The position numbers and the translations under genes were made by a program. The notes below the pieces were generated by a model that saw nothing but the letters and a program-made list of their open reading frames with translations, did not search any database and was not told where the DNA came from. A DNA stretch of 64,000 nt from a phage: sequence record PQ536907.1, one strand, 5' to 3'. Below are positions 14,814 through 25,578 of the stretch, one piece after another (within the stretch, counting starts at the first letter, position 1; each line of letters begins with the position of its first letter).

Positions 14814-16401
<1,588 letters not shown>

Positions 16402-16428
16402 AATAAAATGGGCCTTGCGGCCCACTCC

Positions 16429-17607
16429 TTAAAAGTATTTTTTAAAACTCATCATAACTTTATCATCAACATCATTATCAATCTGCGCTACAAGGTAAGA
16501 TGACAGTTCTACTTCTTGCGGCGCGGATTGAACATTATCAGAATTAAGGTATTCACGAATCCAAGGATATGGATGTTTAACCGGAGCATCGGTAATTGGG
16601 CATGGAAGACCACACTGTTTCATACGAGATACAGTTAAGTAATCAATAAAGCTCCACATGCTATTTGTATTTAATCCAGGAACATCGCCATTTTTAAATA
16701 AATGAACTGCCCAATCTTTTTCTTGGCGGTTAACTTCCATGAAAATATCAACTGCTTCTTGTTCACACTCTTTGGCAATTTTAACCCATTCATCACCATC
16801 CGTGCCAAGTTGAAGTTGACGAATAATATATTGTGTACCTTTAAGATGAAGCTGCTCATCACGTGCAATGAACTTCATAATCTTGGCATTACCTTCCATG
16901 ATTTCCATGTTCTTATGGAAGTTAAAGGTACATGCGAAAGATACATAAAAACGAATAGCTTCCAATGCGTTGATTACGTGTAGGCAGAGGTAAAGAGAGC
17001 GCATTAGTTCACGTTTCCAATACATTTCATGCTCTATGGCATCTTTAATATCATCTTCGTCTGCATTAATTTCTTTTTGGTATTCGATATCAGCTTTAGC
17101 GTTTTCCCAATAACGAGTTTTAATCAGAACATCATCATAATAGCGTCCAATAGATTCGGCTCGTTTCATGATTGCTTCATCTAATACAATCTCATCAAAT
17201 ACCTTTGACGGATCAGTATAAAGATTTCGCATGATATGTGTATATGAACGACTGTGAATAGTTTCACTAAAAGTCCATGTAGCAACCCATGTATCAAGAC
17301 TTGGGTCTGAAATTAACGACATAAGTACAGCAGACGGTGCACGACCCTGAATGCTATCTAGAAGTGATTGATACTTCAGGTTATTAGTAAAAATATCTTG
17401 CTGATATTGAGGAAGCTTGTTAAATTGCGCAGCATCCATCATTAAGTTTACTTCTTCAGGACGCCAGAAAAATGACAACTGCTTTTCGGTTAAATCTTCA
17501 AAAACTTTATGACGTTGAATATCATAACGCGCAATACCAAGGCCTGAACCAAAAAACATAGGTTCTTTTAAAACATCAACTGGATTTGTATTAAAAACTG
17601 TGCTCAT
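16429..17607 (-). CDS. nrdB: ribonucleotide reductase small subunit (uninterrupted)
   Basis: 392-aa continuous ORF with diiron/tyrosyl radical protein features; no intron. Confidence 0.95.
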   Translation of the reverse strand: MSTVFNTNPVDVLKEPMFFGSGLGIARYDIQRHKVFEDLTEKQLSFFWRPEEVNLMMDAAQFNKLPQYQQDIFTNNLKYQSLLDSIQGRAPSAVLMSLISDPSLDTWVATWTFSETIHSRSYTHIMRNLYTDPSKVFDEIVLDEAIMKRAESIGRYYDDVLIKTRYWENAKADIEYQKEINADEDDIKDAIEHEMYWKRELMRSLYLCLHVINALEAIRFYVSFACTFNFHKNMEIMEGNAKIMKFIARDEQLHLKGTQYIIRQLQLGTDGDEWVKIAKECEQEAVDIFMEVNRQEKDWAVHLFKNGDVPGLNTNSMWSFIDYLTVSRMKQCGLPCPITDAPVKHPYPWIREYLNSDNVQSAPQEVELSSYLVAQIDNDVDDKVMMSFKKYF

Positions 17608-17658
17608 AAATTTTCCACTTAGTTAATAGATAGTGACTCGTCCATGAGTCAAATTATA

Positions 17659-19923
17659 TCATAATTTACAGGATGAACAATCTTCAGCTTTTGGAGTTTC
17701 TATTTCATAATCATCAGTACCAGAACCATCGCGGGTATTATGATAATAGAAATTTTTTCCGCCAAAATACCAAAAATACAAAAGGTCATCAATCATTATT
17801 GACATTGGAACCTTTCCTTTTGGAAAAATCTGCGGGTCATAATATGTATTCGCCGAAGCTGATTGACAAACCCATTTCAGCATAATAGCTACCTGCGTAA
17901 GATAAGGTTTATTACCTTTCTTAGCTAATTTCCATGTATAATCATAGAGGTCTATGTTATGCTCAATATTGGGCACGACTTGATTAAAGGAGCCCTCTTT
18001 TGATTCTTTAACAGAGACTGGTCCACGTGGAGGCTCGATACCGTTTGTACTGTTAGAAACTTGGGAAGATGACTCACATGGCATAAGTGCTGATAATGTG
18101 CTATTACGGATGCCAAAGAGCTTAAGGTCTTCCCGCAGCGACGACCAGTCACAAACGTATTTTGGAGCTGCGATTTGGTCAATCTTTTTATTGTACCAGT
18201 CGATAGGTAATTCGCCTCGAGACCAACGAGTGTCTGAATAATATTCGCAAGGTCCTTTTTCTTTGGCGAGCTTAATGGATGCTTTAATGAGTCCATACTG
18301 TAATCTCTCAAATAGTTCATGTGTTAAATCGTTAGCATCTTCATAAGAAGCAAAGTTACTTGCCAGCCAAGCTGCATAGTTAGTAACACCTACACCAAGG
18401 TTTCGACGCTTTTTAGCTTTTTCTGCTTCAGGAACTGGATATCCTTGGTAATCCAAAAGATTATCAAGAGCACGAACTTGAACTTCTGCCAATTCATTAA
18501 TTTTATCTTGGTCTTGCCAATCGAAGTTATCCAGCACAAATGCAGATAACGTGCACAATCCAATTTCAGCATCGGGGCTATTCACATCATTTGTTGGAAT
18601 AGCAATTTCACAGCACAAGTTACTCTGACGAATAGGTGCCTTTTCACGAATAAATGGAGTATAGTTATTCGTATTATCAATGAACTGTACATAAATCCTT
18701 GCTGTTCCTGAGCGTTCAGTCATGAGCAATTCAAATAGTTCACGGGCTTTAATACGCTTTTTACGAATATTAGGGTCTTTTTCTGCTGCTTCGTATAATT
18801 CACGGAAACGGTCTTGGTCTTTAAAATAAGAATAATAAAGCTCGCCACCCATTTCATGCGGACTGAACAAAGTAATGTAATCGTTCTTTCCGAATCGTTC
18901 CATCATCAAATCATTCAGCTGAACACCATAATCCATATGACGAATGCGGTTTTCTTCTACGCCTTTGTTATTTTTCAAAACGAGAAGATTTTCAACTTCC
19001 AAATGCCAAATAGGATAATAAGCAGTAGCAGCGCCGCCACGAATTCCACCCTGTGAACATGATTTAACTGCAGTCTGAAAATGTTTCCAAAAAGGAATAA
19101 CACCGGTATGGCGTACTTCACCCATGCCAATCTTAGAACCTTCAGCACGAATCATACCAACGTTAATACCAATTCCAGCGCGTTTAGAGATATATTCAAC
19201 AATTGAAGCGGAAGCCTTATTGATAGACTTTAATGAATCACCTGCCTCAATAACAACGCATGAACTAAACTGTCGAGTCGGAGTACGGCAACCAGCCATA
19301 ATAGGAGTTGGCAATGAAATCTGTCGAGTAGATACTGCTTCATAAAAACGGATAACATGTTTTAGTCTATCAACAGGTTCATCTTGATGCAGTGCCATTC
19401 CAATAGTCATAAATGCAAACTGTGGAGTTTCATAAATTTGACCGGTGGTTTTATCTTTAACTAGATATTTTTCTTTTAATTGCATCGCCCCGGAATAAGT
19501 AAATTCCATATCCCGCTCGTGCTTAATTTTTGATTCTAAAAATGTAATTTCTTCTGCTGAATATTTTGACAATAATTCAGGGTCATATTTACCTGCATTT
19601 ACACAATAAGAAATATGGTCAATAAATGAACGCGGTTCATACTGCCCATAAACATGCTTACGAAGAGCGAACATTAGACAACGTGCAGCTACATATTGAT
19701 AATCAGGCTCTTCAACCGAAATAGAATTCGCAGCGGCCTTAATGACAATAGTCTGAATATCATCAGTTGTCATTCCATCACGGAGATAAGATTTAATATT
19801 TTCATATAATTCATAAGGATCTACTGATGTTCCTTCAGCTGCCCAAGATAAAACTTTAATAATTTTTTGTGGGTCAAAGCTCTGAGAAACACCACTACTT
19901 TTGATAACATTGATTAATTGCAT
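17659..19923 (-). CDS. nrdA: ribonucleotide reductase large subunit
   Basis: 754 aa; class Ia RNR catalytic motifs (NLCCEI, C-terminal CSSCKL). Confidence 0.95.
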   Translation of the reverse strand: MQLINVIKSSGVSQSFDPQKIIKVLSWAAEGTSVDPYELYENIKSYLRDGMTTDDIQTIVIKAAANSISVEEPDYQYVAARCLMFALRKHVYGQYEPRSFIDHISYCVNAGKYDPELLSKYSAEEITFLESKIKHERDMEFTYSGAMQLKEKYLVKDKTTGQIYETPQFAFMTIGMALHQDEPVDRLKHVIRFYEAVSTRQISLPTPIMAGCRTPTRQFSSCVVIEAGDSLKSINKASASIVEYISKRAGIGINVGMIRAEGSKIGMGEVRHTGVIPFWKHFQTAVKSCSQGGIRGGAATAYYPIWHLEVENLLVLKNNKGVEENRIRHMDYGVQLNDLMMERFGKNDYITLFSPHEMGGELYYSYFKDQDRFRELYEAAEKDPNIRKKRIKARELFELLMTERSGTARIYVQFIDNTNNYTPFIREKAPIRQSNLCCEIAIPTNDVNSPDAEIGLCTLSAFVLDNFDWQDQDKINELAEVQVRALDNLLDYQGYPVPEAEKAKKRRNLGVGVTNYAAWLASNFASYEDANDLTHELFERLQYGLIKASIKLAKEKGPCEYYSDTRWSRGELPIDWYNKKIDQIAAPKYVCDWSSLREDLKLFGIRNSTLSALMPCESSSQVSNSTNGIEPPRGPVSVKESKEGSFNQVVPNIEHNIDLYDYTWKLAKKGNKPYLTQVAIMLKWVCQSASANTYYDPQIFPKGKVPMSIMIDDLLYFWYFGGKNFYYHNTRDGSGTDDYEIETPKAEDCSSCKL

Positions 19924-20240
19924 AAGTCCTCAACTTGAAAATCGTCTTTAAACAATCGGTTAACTATATGAGCTATTATATCACCATGACACGGCTTTGG
20001 TTTACATGTGCATCCTAGCCTCATTCCACGTAAAGGCTCTAAATGTGCTTTAGTTATTTCTCCGGATTTAATTCGACGTATAAAATCTTTTTTGAATAAT
20101 TCAATGGCAGCCTCCCGGCTGCCAGCATCTTTACCGACGTAATTTCCCCAAAATGTACCACGGTGAATATTAACATCAAAGTCGGATTTGTATTTATTCA
20201 CTACCCGGCATAGACGGCCCGGTTGGTAATAATTCTTCAT
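19914..20240 (-). CDS. hypothetical protein (108 aa; nrdA.1-like), DUF4326-like Cys motif
   Basis: C-terminal [11 protein letters not shown] motif. Confidence 0.5.
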
Positions 20241-20457
20241 ATTGTTTTTCCGTTAAAACAGTAATATCGTAGTAACAGTCAGAAGAAGTTTTAACTGTGG
20301 AAATTTTATTGTCAAAATACTCACGAGTCATTTTATGAGTATAGTATTTTTTACCATAAATGGTAATAGGCTGTTCTGGTCCTGGAACTTCTAACTCGCT
20401 TGGGTTAGGAAGTGTAAAAAGAACGACACCAGAAGTATCTTTAAATCGTAAAATCAT
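20194..20457 (-). CDS. hypothetical protein (87 aa; nrdA.2-like)
   Basis: ORF, synteny. Confidence 0.45.
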
Positions 20458-21314
20458 ATTGCCATTTTCCCTTTAATTGCTGGATGCGATTCATAATTTT
20501 CAAGGATAAAATCTTTCGGTTTCATGTATTCAGTTAACCAGTAAAGCTGTGTTTCGGTGTCACAATTTCCAAACTCTATAGGCCAATCAATTTTAAGTTC
20601 ACACAGTTCTTTAGGCTCACGACGTAAAATTTCTTTACATTGCTCAGTATGATTCATATAGATGTGAGTATTACCACCAGAAAATATCAAATCTCCTGGG
20701 ATAAGATTACACATCTTAGCCACAATATGCGTCAAGGCAGCGTACGAGGCAATGTTGAATGGCAAGCCCAAGAAAACATCTACACTTCTTTGGTACCATT
20801 GTAAATCAAGATAACCATTACGCACATTAAACTGATAGAACATATGACAGGGCGGTAATGCCATTTGATTGGTTTCAGCTGGATTCCATGCTGAAACGAT
20901 TTGACGTCGATCAGTTGGTAATTTTTTAATACGATCAATAGTTTCAACTAATTGATCCACACCACCGAAATCACGCCATTGTTTACCGTATATAGGACCA
21001 AGTTCACCACTATGATATCCTAGGTCTTTAGCCTGGTTTTCATAGTTATCGTCCCAAATAGTTTTACCTTGAATAAGACTACCATGAGTGCGAAGACGTA
21101 AATCATTAACATTGGTAGAACCGGAAATAAACCATAGAAGCTCAGCAATACATGCATTCCACGCAAGCTTCTTAGTTGTTACCGCAGGAAAACCTTTAGT
21201 TAAATCCCAGCGTAATTTAGTACCGAACAAAGCAATTGTTCCTGTGCCTGTTCGGTCATCGGTTTCATAACCATTTTCAAAAATGTCTTTAATTAAATCT
21301 TGGTATTGTTTCAT
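20454..21314 (-). CDS. td: thymidylate synthase (uninterrupted)
   Basis: 286-aa continuous ORF; TS active-site region [11 protein letters not shown]; no intron. Confidence 0.95.
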
Positions 21315-21358
21315 TTAGTACCTTATATAAATTATAATACATTTTATGAAGCTAATAA

Positions 21359-21706
21359 TCAATACGGTTTAGCATCAAATTTTCTCTCAATTTCAGGCGT
21401 GAAATATAATTCTTTACCGCGTTTGGAAAAGCGACCAATAATATGATAATTATTCTCATCAAACGTGATATTACCAATATCCATAGCTTTCAACCAAATA
21501 TCGATATTTCTATCCAGCTTTATGTCAAAATTCCAATACGGAGAACTATTACCGAAAATACTACAAGCGGATTCAGTGAAACAGCTACTATAAATCTTGT
21601 CTTTAGGAACTACTAATTGGTAGACACCTTTAATAAACTGAGGACCTTGCCATTTTGGCTGTTTCTCGTCTTTTTCTAACAGAATAGGGTAATAATTAAA
21701 ATTCAT
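21359..21706 (-). CDS. hypothetical protein (115 aa) inserted between frd and td
   Basis: ORF fills the 411-bp gap between frd stop (21726) and td start (21314); no recognisable motifs. Confidence 0.5.
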   Translation of the reverse strand: MNFNYYPILLEKDEKQPKWQGPQFIKGVYQLVVPKDKIYSSCFTESACSIFGNSSPYWNFDIKLDRNIDIWLKAMDIGNITFDENNYHIIGRFSKRGKELYFTPEIERKFDAKPY

Positions 21707-21725
21707 ATTTCCGCCACGCGTTATT

Positions 21726-22546
<821 letters not shown>

Positions 22547-23916: not shown

Positions 23917-24825
23917 TTAAAGGTCATTCAAAAGGTCATCTAGGTCCGTGTCATCAGCACTAGATGAACTGCCAGAGCTTGAGCTCATAAAATCATCTTC
24001 AGTTTTTGTATTGAAGTCATCAACATTGAATGCATCCAAATCATCAGCAACTTTATCAGCTTTCTTAGCAGCAGTTGCAGCGGCACCGCCCATCACAGCA
24101 GTTCCCATGACTTGACCGAATTTAGTGCTCAGTTCTTCAAACGATTTGAATTTATCTTTAGAAGTCATTTCAGAAAGGTCAACCATTTGTTCGAACAGTT
24201 CTTTCTGGAAAGATTCATCGTCAATGTTTGGAATCGCAGATTGATTTAGGAATTTAGATTCATCGTAGTTACTAAATCCAGAAACCTGTTTAACTTTCAG
24301 TACAAAGTTAGCACCTTCCCACGGACAAGTTACATCAACTGGAGTTTCACCCATTTCAACATCAACCGCAATCATCGCGTTGATTTTATCCCAGATTTTC
24401 TTACCGAAACGATATTTAAATACTTTACCTTCATTTTCTGGAGCAGCTGGGTCTTTTACAACAAGAATGTTAGCCCAGTAAGAAGTTTTACGTTTAACAA
24501 GACTGTACTCTTTATTGTCAGTGTTGTACAGATCATTTTTACTGATGTACTGACATACTGGGCAAGAATCGTAATCACCGTGGGTAGATGAACAGTTTTC
24601 AATATACCATTTACCATTTTTCTTGAAACCGTGATTTACAAGAATTGCGAATGGTGCTTGTTCATCATTTTTAGACGGAAGAAAACGAATTACTGCTTGA
24701 CCGTTACCCGCATTGTCGAGTTTCAGTTTCCACTCGCCTTTATCTTCAGAAGAAAAACCACCTTTATTTCCAGCCAGTTTAGCCATTTGTGCAGCGAGTT
24801 CAGCAGTAGATTTACGTTTAAACAT
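23917..24825 (-). CDS. 32: gp32 single-stranded DNA-binding protein
   Basis: 302 aa, [17 protein letters not shown]...; acidic Ser/Asp-rich C-terminal tail; matches recalled T4 gp32. Confidence 0.95.
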
Positions 24826-24916
24826 TTTTATTTCCTTTTTAATTTAATTAACAGTTGGTGCTATGACGATGTATGACCTCATAGCTGGTCAGTGAGATAA
24901 TTATAATCTATTTATA
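24826..24916 (-). promoter_or_regulatory. Gene 32 5' leader: AU-rich autoregulatory operator, candidate pseudoknot, and late promoter TATAAATA
   Basis: Minus-strand leader ...ctcactgaccagctatgaggtcatacatcgtcatagcaccaactgttaattaaattaaaaaggaaataaaaATG; TATAAATAG at 24909-24916. Confidence 0.55.
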
Positions 24917-24924
24917 ATAAGCAA

Positions 24925-25578
24925 TTAATACTTGCAAGATTTCACAGTTTCAATAAAAACTTTTTTAGCTTCCTGTGAATCAATATTTAAAATTTTTCTA
25001 TAAGCCTTTAACTTTATAGAATAATTATTCCAGACTAAATTATCAGTCTGTTCATCATGTTTATCAATTATATTTAAAAACGAATCAAGCAAGATAAACG
25101 TTTCAAACGAAATTATGTTCGATTGCAGAAGTTTAAAAATATAACTTGACTGAACCTTTGGATTATATTCAAAGATTTCTTTAAAAGCAGAAACTTCAAC
25201 TTTTTTACTAAAATAATAAATGTTGCGAATATCTTCTTCAAACTTAAATTTAATTTGCTTTAAGCGTCCGATATATTCACGATAAAACACAAGTGCATCA
25301 GCGTCAGAGATGTCACCAATCCAAGCATCTTGGTTAGCAACCAAATTACTTATAAAGATTAAAGCAAGTTCCTTTAATTTATATTTTTCTGATAACTTCT
25401 GGAAAAAATACTTATCCCTTCGCTTTTGATAAGCGGCATCAGACACCCGCATGCACCAATTATACTTAATTACATCATACTTTCCATTCATATGCTGTTT
25501 TATCATTAAGTATAATTTATAAACTGATTTACCATCAATATATCTTTCACCACCAGCAGGCATGCGGAGTTTAATCAT
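24925..25578 (-). CDS. 59: gp59 helicase loader
   Basis: 217 aa; position between 32 and 33; matches recalled T4 gp59. Confidence 0.9.
   Translation of the reverse strand: MIKLRMPAGGERYIDGKSVYKLYLMIKQHMNGKYDVIKYNWCMRVSDAAYQKRRDKYFFQKLSEKYKLKELALIFISNLVANQDAWIGDISDADALVFYREYIGRLKQIKFKFEEDIRNIYYFSKKVEVSAFKEIFEYNPKVQSSYIFKLLQSNIISFETFILLDSFLNIIDKHDEQTDNLVWNNYSIKLKAYRKILNIDSQEAKKVFIETVKSCKY

Follow-up and report, generated by a model that had tools for sequence, protein, structure and literature searches.

An uninvaded td-nrdA-nrdB cluster in a Tequatrovirus: a probable recipient of T4-type homing elements with a conserved hairpin in its nrdA-nrdB spacer

The 64,000-nucleotide (nt) stretch of phage DNA in sequence record PQ536907.1, hereafter the window, comes from a Tequatrovirus and carries the genes for thymidylate synthase (td) and for the two subunits of ribonucleotide reductase (nrdA, nrdB) in a cluster that is very probably an ordinary uninvaded one, a likely recipient of homing elements, in which the short nrdA-nrdB spacer is both an empty site and the seat of a hairpin element. 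On this reading td and nrdB would never have been, or would no longer be, interrupted by group I introns, and the spacer of 51 base pairs (bp) would be the empty site for free-standing endonuclease genes of the mobE-type HNH and hef-type classes, filled in a minority of relatives. T4 (NC_000866) resembles the window in having homologous genes in the same order, with nrdB exon 2 96.4% identical. It differs in a 1017-nt td intron with I-TevI, in a 598-nt nrdB intron with a defective I-TevIII, and in mobE and nrdB.1 in place of the spacer, so that the hairpin is missing; it also has another td allele, another nrdB sequence at the MobE site and no td.1.

The absence of introns and of mobE, which an earlier note had read from the letters of the window, is borne out, and the coordinates, the lengths, the 51-bp gap and the palindrome (17634-17651) in that note are all right. 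Both genes are continuous open reading frames (ORFs) on the minus strand, colinear with the spliced T4 genes: td, of 861 nt and 286 amino acids (aa), at 20454-21314 (TIGR03284, 297 bits against a cut-off of 108), and nrdB, the class Ia beta subunit gene of 1179 nt and 392 aa, at 16429-17607 (NF006576, 483 bits against a cut-off of 346). The splice junctions were located in the T4 region, where td exon 1 ends in ...CTTGGGT before the 1017-nt intron and nrdB exon 1 ends in ...TTTTGCGT before the 598-nt intron. Aligned with the T4 exons, Td and NrdB run straight across both insertion points, the equivalents of which lie between 20766 and 20765 in td and between 16932 and 16931 in nrdB. NrdB matches spliced T4 NrdB in 359 of 395 alignment columns, with a 4-aa length difference inside a variable patch. 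The gap between nrdA and nrdB (17608-17658, minus strand, from nrdA stop to nrdB start) measures only 51 bp and holds no ORF.

The similarity searches agree. Across the entire 64 kb, blastn with the T4 td intron, nrdB intron and mobE/nrdB.1 gave chance-level matches only, as did tblastn with I-TevI, I-TevIII, MobE, NrdB.1 and the 213-aa enzyme of phage AdolfPortmann; the best E value in the window for T4 MobE, NrdB.1 and the AdolfPortmann enzyme was 0.24. The earlier note had named an intron core or an endonuclease ORF inside these genes as the observation that would tell against it, and these searches found no intron or endonuclease sequence there. An Rfam scan likewise returned no match in the window, but this negative carries no weight because the T4 control locus, which holds both introns, was also negative. 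Rfam was dropped as an intron detector after this failed positive control, and colinearity and BLAST were used instead. Its gathering threshold misses the T4 td and nrdB group I introns, presumably owing to their large ORF inserts, and Rfam negatives are thus unusable for excluding ORF-bearing phage introns.

The arrangement is not the unusual one that the earlier note implied. A 161-bp probe over the nrdA-spacer-nrdB junction was contiguous in 374 of the 503 phage records that it matched (74%). These genes are present with Tequatrovirus-level identity in about 590-665 records; for comparison, 197 records contain the full T4 td intron, 118 the T4 nrdB intron and 20 the complete mobE plus nrdB.1 segment, with any match to that segment in 143. 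Among 34 IMG/VR loci found with the NrdB protein, nrdB was interrupted in one, and four had a mobE-sized insert. The intron-free, mobE-less layout is the norm and T4 the outlier. T4 has been described as an outlier in homing-endonuclease content, with few endonuclease insertions in most of its relatives (review by Edgell and colleagues, PMC2988022), and RB14 and RB32 were already listed as mobE-less phages by Wilson & Edgell 2009 (PMC2790892). The finding as such, a T2/RB14-type arrangement, is already known.

The closest parallels are T2 and T2H (AP018813, AY262132) and RB14/RB32 (FJ839692), with the identical order frd, td.1, td, nrdA.2, nrdA.1, nrdA, spacer, nrdB, denA. In T2, T2H and RB14, as in the window, td has 861 nt and nrdB 1179 nt, both are uninterrupted, and the 51-bp spacer is 100% identical. 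The window differs from T2 and RB14 alike in combining a T2-type nrdB 5' end with an RB14-type td. The cluster is thus a mosaic: the 5' 200 nt of nrdB (17391-17590) are 99.5% identical to the T2 type and 90% to RB14, whereas td is 98.5-99.5% identical to the RB14 type and 65-80% to T2.

The earlier note held that the exons are close to those of T4, that the homing sites are therefore probably intact and that the phage would be a recipient in mixed infection. The claim of intact sites stands for both nrdB targets, whereas its premise fails for td. A MobE-dependent nick was mapped in T2 nrdB at nt 122-126, the proposed target comprises the polymorphic nrdB nt 114-131 together with the block coding for FFWRPEE, and codon 42 is AAG in all mobE-less phages (PMC2790892). 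The equivalent of nt 114-131, placed by identity with T2, lies at 17477-17494 on the minus strand, with the nick positions at 17482-17486. Over nrdB nt 100-160 the window matches T2 and T2H in 61 of 61 positions, with AAG as codon 42 and with the FFWRPEE block in place; T4 and other mobE carriers differ at this target, codon 42 of T4 being CGG. A MobE target site of T2 type is thus predicted in the window nrdB. The equivalent of the I-TevIII site, around the nrdB insertion point (16902-16971, minus strand), agrees with T4 in 68 of 70 positions and with T2 in 69 of 70. The two differences from T4 are at -5 and -2, and the positions -14/-16, where I-TevIII cuts (PMC1865063), fall in sequence identical to T4; between -6 and -40 identity is complete but for -29, -34 and -37. 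Within nrdB, codons ~165-205 (16990-17110) stand apart, with ~90% identity even to T2 and RB14, the remainder of the gene being 96-100% identical.

The td gene does not resemble that of T4 to the extent supposed: exon 1 is only 83.7% identical and the 3' end is unalignable. At the DNA level td is 98.7% identical to RB14 and, ungapped, 77% identical to T4 and T2, and its last ~140 nt cannot be aligned to T4. The Td protein is identical to that of T4 at 238 of 286 residues, with merely 17 of 46 matching at the C terminus. Codons 241-286 (20454-20595) have no DNA-level alignment to T4 or T2 and are common to the window and RB14; here the td stop overlaps the nrdA.2 start, where T4 has a 20-bp gap instead. 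These features suggest that the 3' end of td is a replaced gene end.

Despite this divergence, a window-type td allele has likely been invaded by the intron in nature. When the window td was used as a search query, the match in some records ended exactly at nt 548, which led to vB_EcoM_G8 (MK373787; L007 2501-4377) and Pu-Krd-SF2 (PQ249396; L008 2501-4377). These phages have the td allele of the window/RB14 type outside a patch around the insertion site, but with an inserted I-TevI-encoding intron of T4 type (1016 nt, 99.7% identical to the T4 intron). G8 differs further in that its nrdB is interrupted, with a 213-aa ORF upstream. In G8 the T4-type sequence is confined to td nt ~505-553 (about -45 to +4), spanning from just past the I-TevI cut site to just past the insertion point; in Pu-Krd-SF2 the T4-type tract is longer upstream, from about td nt 320. 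The patch looks like the footprint expected of double-strand-break repair from an intron donor. It also brings T at -1, where the window has C. Group I splicing generally needs a U as the final exon nucleotide, where it pairs with G in P1. As the T at -1 is situated between the cut and the intron, homing would co-convert it every time. The likely status of the window td as a recipient follows from these two genomes, which also constitute a natural data set on the tolerance of I-TevI to target variation.

The spacer, for its part, appears as the unfilled version of a site that other phages have filled, and the nrdA-nrdB gap is an insertion hotspot. In T4, mobE, with nrdB.1, replaces the entire spacer. 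In AdolfPortmann, 97% identical to the window over the region, a 213-aa HNH-NUMOD3 gene stands exactly in place of the 51 bp, and its departures from the window sequence are concentrated at 17400-17700, where the insert borders the first 200 nt of nrdB, a distribution that fits co-conversion or target-site immunity polymorphisms. T4 MobE, of 141 aa, and NrdB.1, of 83 aa, can together be aligned over their full length with the single AdolfPortmann protein (T4 mobE and nrdB.1 at L001 5717-6417; AdolfPortmann at L003 2105-2746). The two T4 genes thus resemble a single endonuclease gene that has been split or frameshifted, in which NrdB.1 corresponds to the C-terminal part, probably the one that binds DNA. 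At locus L036 the gap holds a 168-bp remnant with a mobE-like start and an nrdB.1-like end. One or two small ORFs (54-127 aa) occupy the gap in L019, L023-L027, L035, L037 and L038, each downstream of the hairpin described below. L033 and G8 (L042, 860-1501) have an ORF of ~213 aa upstream of nrdB without a Pfam match, possibly the hef-type endonuclease known from phage U5.

The palindrome that the earlier note reported in the spacer (plus strand, TGACTCGTCCATGAGTCA) reads on the mRNA strand as TGACTC-ATGGAC-GAGTCA, a hairpin with a 6-bp stem and a 6-nt loop (17634-17651, minus strand). A conserved TATAAT (17653-17658, minus strand) directly follows the nrdA stop codon, 1-3 nt upstream of the hairpin. 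In the window sequence alone the palindrome is at chance level: an equivalent hairpin arose in 10% of spacer shuffles and occurred in 110 of 1254 51-nt windows of the entire sequence (9%), with a fold z-score of -0.96. The initial conclusion that it is a chance feature was overturned by comparative data. A hairpin in this position, directly behind the nrdA stop, is also found in RB69, which belongs to another genus (Mosigvirus), and in IMG/VR loci, irrespective of whether nrdB follows it or small ORFs unrelated to nrdB (L009 4382-4429; L006 6977-7024; just upstream of position 1501 in L010-L043). The stems vary (GACTC/GAGTC, GGCTC/GAGCC, GGACC/GGTCC, GGACA/TGTCC, GCTCA/TGAGC, GACCA/TGGTT) and the apex C-A-Y-G-G-A-N-G stays constant.

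Covariation was assessed with 17 distinct sequences from diverse T4-like phages, with shuffle and partner-slide controls. Pairing was found in 89% of cells versus 68% in shuffles, and the covariation score was 0.663 versus 0.267 shuffled, a value that 0 of 500 shuffles reached; with partners slid it fell to 0.18 or less. Four of the five inner stem pairs are altered on both sides in a compensatory manner. In the loop, AYGGAN, the positions A, G, G and A, together with the closing C-G pair, are invariant in all 17 sequences. The few G-U pairs lie on the mRNA strand. The sequences are related, and the shuffle figure cannot be read as a probability; the slide control, like the diversity of the stems, speaks against an artefact. 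A covariance model built from the alignment recovered a single copy in the window (49 bits, with the runner-up at 15.6) and matched T2, RB69 and L034, with no match in T4, in AdolfPortmann or in any locus with a mobE-type insert.

The events that these sites would allow can be outlined. In an infection shared with a T4-like donor, the window nrdB, whose target equals the one mapped in T2, would accordingly be nicked by MobE at nt 122-126. Repair on the donor template would then bring in mobE and, in trans, the nrdB intron, and the mobE insertion would remove the spacer hairpin. I-TevI would most likely cut td at CAAAG, 23/25 nt upstream of the insertion point, and repair of td would copy in the intron plus a short stretch of donor exon.

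At td this outline meets a difficulty. The diverged site might protect the allele from I-TevI, in which case the absence of the intron would reflect immunity rather than lack of exposure. Alignment with spliced T4 td places the site equivalent, -27 to +12, at 20754-20792 on the minus strand. T4 has another base at 11 of these 39 positions, and three of the 11 belong to the four bases immediately 3' of the top-strand cut. The differences comprise CAACG to CAAAG, switched Arg (CGC to AGA) and Ser (TCA to AGT) codons, and further changes at -1, +1, +3, +6, +9 and +12. T2, the classical recipient, keeps CAACG and a T4-like site; the window allele is of the RB14 type. Many central triplets of CNNNG make poor I-TevI substrates (PMC5009752), and the literature on I-TevI yielded no statement on cleavage of CAAAG, with central AAA. 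The chimeric td genes of G8 and Pu-Krd-SF2 could in principle stem from ordinary recombination instead of endonuclease-driven homing, and the I-TevI site in the ancestral form of their td allele may have differed somewhat from that of the window. All of this weighs against a susceptible td. Yet what I-TevI requires is CNNNG with the critical C (-27) and G (-23) (PMC5009752), and both are kept at the right distance, in CAAAG at td nt 523-527 (20788-20792). The enzyme tolerates sequence variation (PMC5009752; PMC2988022), and G8 and Pu-Krd-SF2 carry the intron in the same allele, with a conversion tract starting just past the cleavage site. A resistant td allele is on these grounds rather unlikely. 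The phage is thus probably a recipient, as the earlier note proposed, though not for the reason that it gave, since td is not T4-like; support comes instead from the retained CNNNG motif and from the two invaded relatives.

A different doubt concerns history: the lineage might once have had the introns, mobE or both and have lost them precisely, so that the sites would not be naive. Loss does belong to the life cycles of homing elements (PMC2988022), and the 168-bp remnant of L036 shows that genes like mobE and nrdB.1 decay. The spacer and its hairpin, however, are conserved in position and structure out to RB69 and many IMG/VR phages, a pattern that fits an ancestral empty site rather than the scar of a deletion; the window shows no detectable remnant of an intron or of mobE; and the exon type that accompanies the td intron, that of T4, is not the one that the window has. 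Secondary loss is accordingly given a small probability. The same small probability is given to a palindrome without a specific role, arisen as an inverted repeat by chance or acting as a weak intrinsic terminator. In favour of this view are the chance level in the single sequence and a consensus scan that lists the palindrome itself as terminator-like. That scan counted four such structures in the region against a shuffle expectation of 3.3, however, and chance does not account for compensatory changes in four of five inner pairs across 17 sequences with an invariant loop. An intrinsic terminator was rejected: only three of the six stem pairs are G-C, the tail, CUAUCUAUUA, has no U-tract, and no terminator is reported in the spacer of mobE-less phages (PMC2790892).

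The reading of an uninvaded cluster that is open to homing thus keeps its hairpin, which would most likely be a sense-strand RNA element, either the binding site of a protein that reads the loop or a processing or stability element. In the high-affinity consensus of CsrA/RsmE a stem carries the hexaloop ANGGAX (Duss et al. 2014, PMC4005645). The spacer hairpin likewise presents A-Y-G-G-A-N directly on a 5-6-bp stem, with the positions required by the consensus conserved, and the window loop A-U-G-G-A-C on its 6-bp stem fits that consensus, as a likeness in sequence. This is a resemblance to a CsrA-type binding hairpin and not membership of that class; a search of the literature gave no paper that connects CsrA with T4-type phages or T4-type nrdB. 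Between the hairpin and the ribosome-binding site downstream of it are 4-25 nt, and at that site the window has a second GGA (GUGGAA), which at the Shine-Dalgarno sequence is not found in all relatives. That it is a post-transcriptional control element of T4-like phages, read by CsrA or another loop-specific RNA-binding protein, is a tentative and doubtful proposal drawn from the comparison of sequences.

Other roles may be considered. With the AU-rich UAUAAU beside a stem-loop, the hairpin could mark a site of RNase E-type processing; it could also stabilise the 3' end of the nrdA mRNA. The TATAAT itself may be the -10 element of an nrdB promoter or an AU-rich single-stranded RNA segment. Wilson & Edgell placed the nrdB promoter in the spacer (PMC2790892); read against the consensus of PMC2988021, no convincing MotA box was seen 12±1 bp upstream of TATAAT. 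If TATAAT is the -10 of nrdB, transcripts would start inside the 5' arm and so lack the hairpin, and only read-through nrdA-nrdB transcripts would carry it. A regulon of such hairpins receives no support: the covariance model found no further copies in the window, where the loop motif is not enriched either. A host origin was also rejected: the Escherichia coli nrdA-nrdB spacer consists of REP (repetitive extragenic palindromic)-like repeats and has no such hairpin.

The remaining genes of the region are arranged as in related phages. The 6.4 kb from denA to frd, with every gene on the minus strand, are 99.8% identical to Escherichia phage vB_Eco_Some, the closest whole match, 98% to Serratia phage PhiZZ30 and 96.9% to RB14. 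From one end of this segment, denA (15991-16425) is followed by nrdB and the spacer, then by nrdA, which encodes the 754-aa class Ia alpha subunit (17659-19923; NF006578, 993 bits; 96.5% identical to T4 and 98.2% to RB14), nrdA.1 (19914-20240; DUF4326, PF14216, 79 bits) and nrdA.2 (20194-20457; DUF5496, PF17600, 199 bits). The last of these overlaps the td stop codon and occupies its place in the gene order common to T4, T2 and RB14. Beyond td and the td.1-like ORF lies frd (21726-22307). A further 80-aa ORF (22304-22546, minus strand; phrog_4308, RB14ncORF233c) is found between frd and frd.1, where T4 has a 71-bp gap.

The td.1-like ORF (115 aa; 21359-21706, minus strand), between frd and td and outside the coordinates of the earlier note, corresponds to RB32ORF229c and to td.1 of T2H; it is also present in T2 and RB14 and is absent from T4, in which the stop codon of frd overlaps the start of td. 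A direct repeat of the frd/td junction, AAATGAAA (21306-21317 and 21721-21732), borders the insertion on both sides, as the RB14 annotation already notes. About 19 representative homologues are known from the searches, all of 95-116 aa. In one genome td.1 is annotated as a putative homing endonuclease; sequence and structure searches do not support this annotation, having found no nuclease fold (GIY-YIG, HNH, LAGLIDADG, PD-(D/E)xK or EDxHD), no Pfam or NCBIfam family and only a PHROG match without an assigned function.

Farther away, just 99 bp (24826-24924) lie between gene 32 (23917-24825) and gene 59 (24925-25578). The endonuclease gene segG, which in T4 is located between these two genes, is therefore also absent from the window, as in T2.

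As stated, the finding matters little, for the lack of the T4 introns and of mobE in most T-even-type phages is well known; such phages serve as recipients in crosses, T2 being the classic case. With a MobE target that equals the mapped T2 site, the phage of the window could stand in for T2 in such crosses. The conserved, covarying hairpin is the only result that goes beyond the literature consulted, and it merits modest follow-up. If it is indeed a control element, it would set the translation or stability of the mRNA for the small subunit of ribonucleotide reductase, or for whichever gene follows nrdA. A mobE-type insertion would then delete it, which would explain why mobE-bearing phages have a new terminator and nrdB promoter inside the inserted gene. 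The loss of the hairpin on occupancy of the site by an endonuclease gene suggests that endonuclease invasion may carry a regulatory cost.

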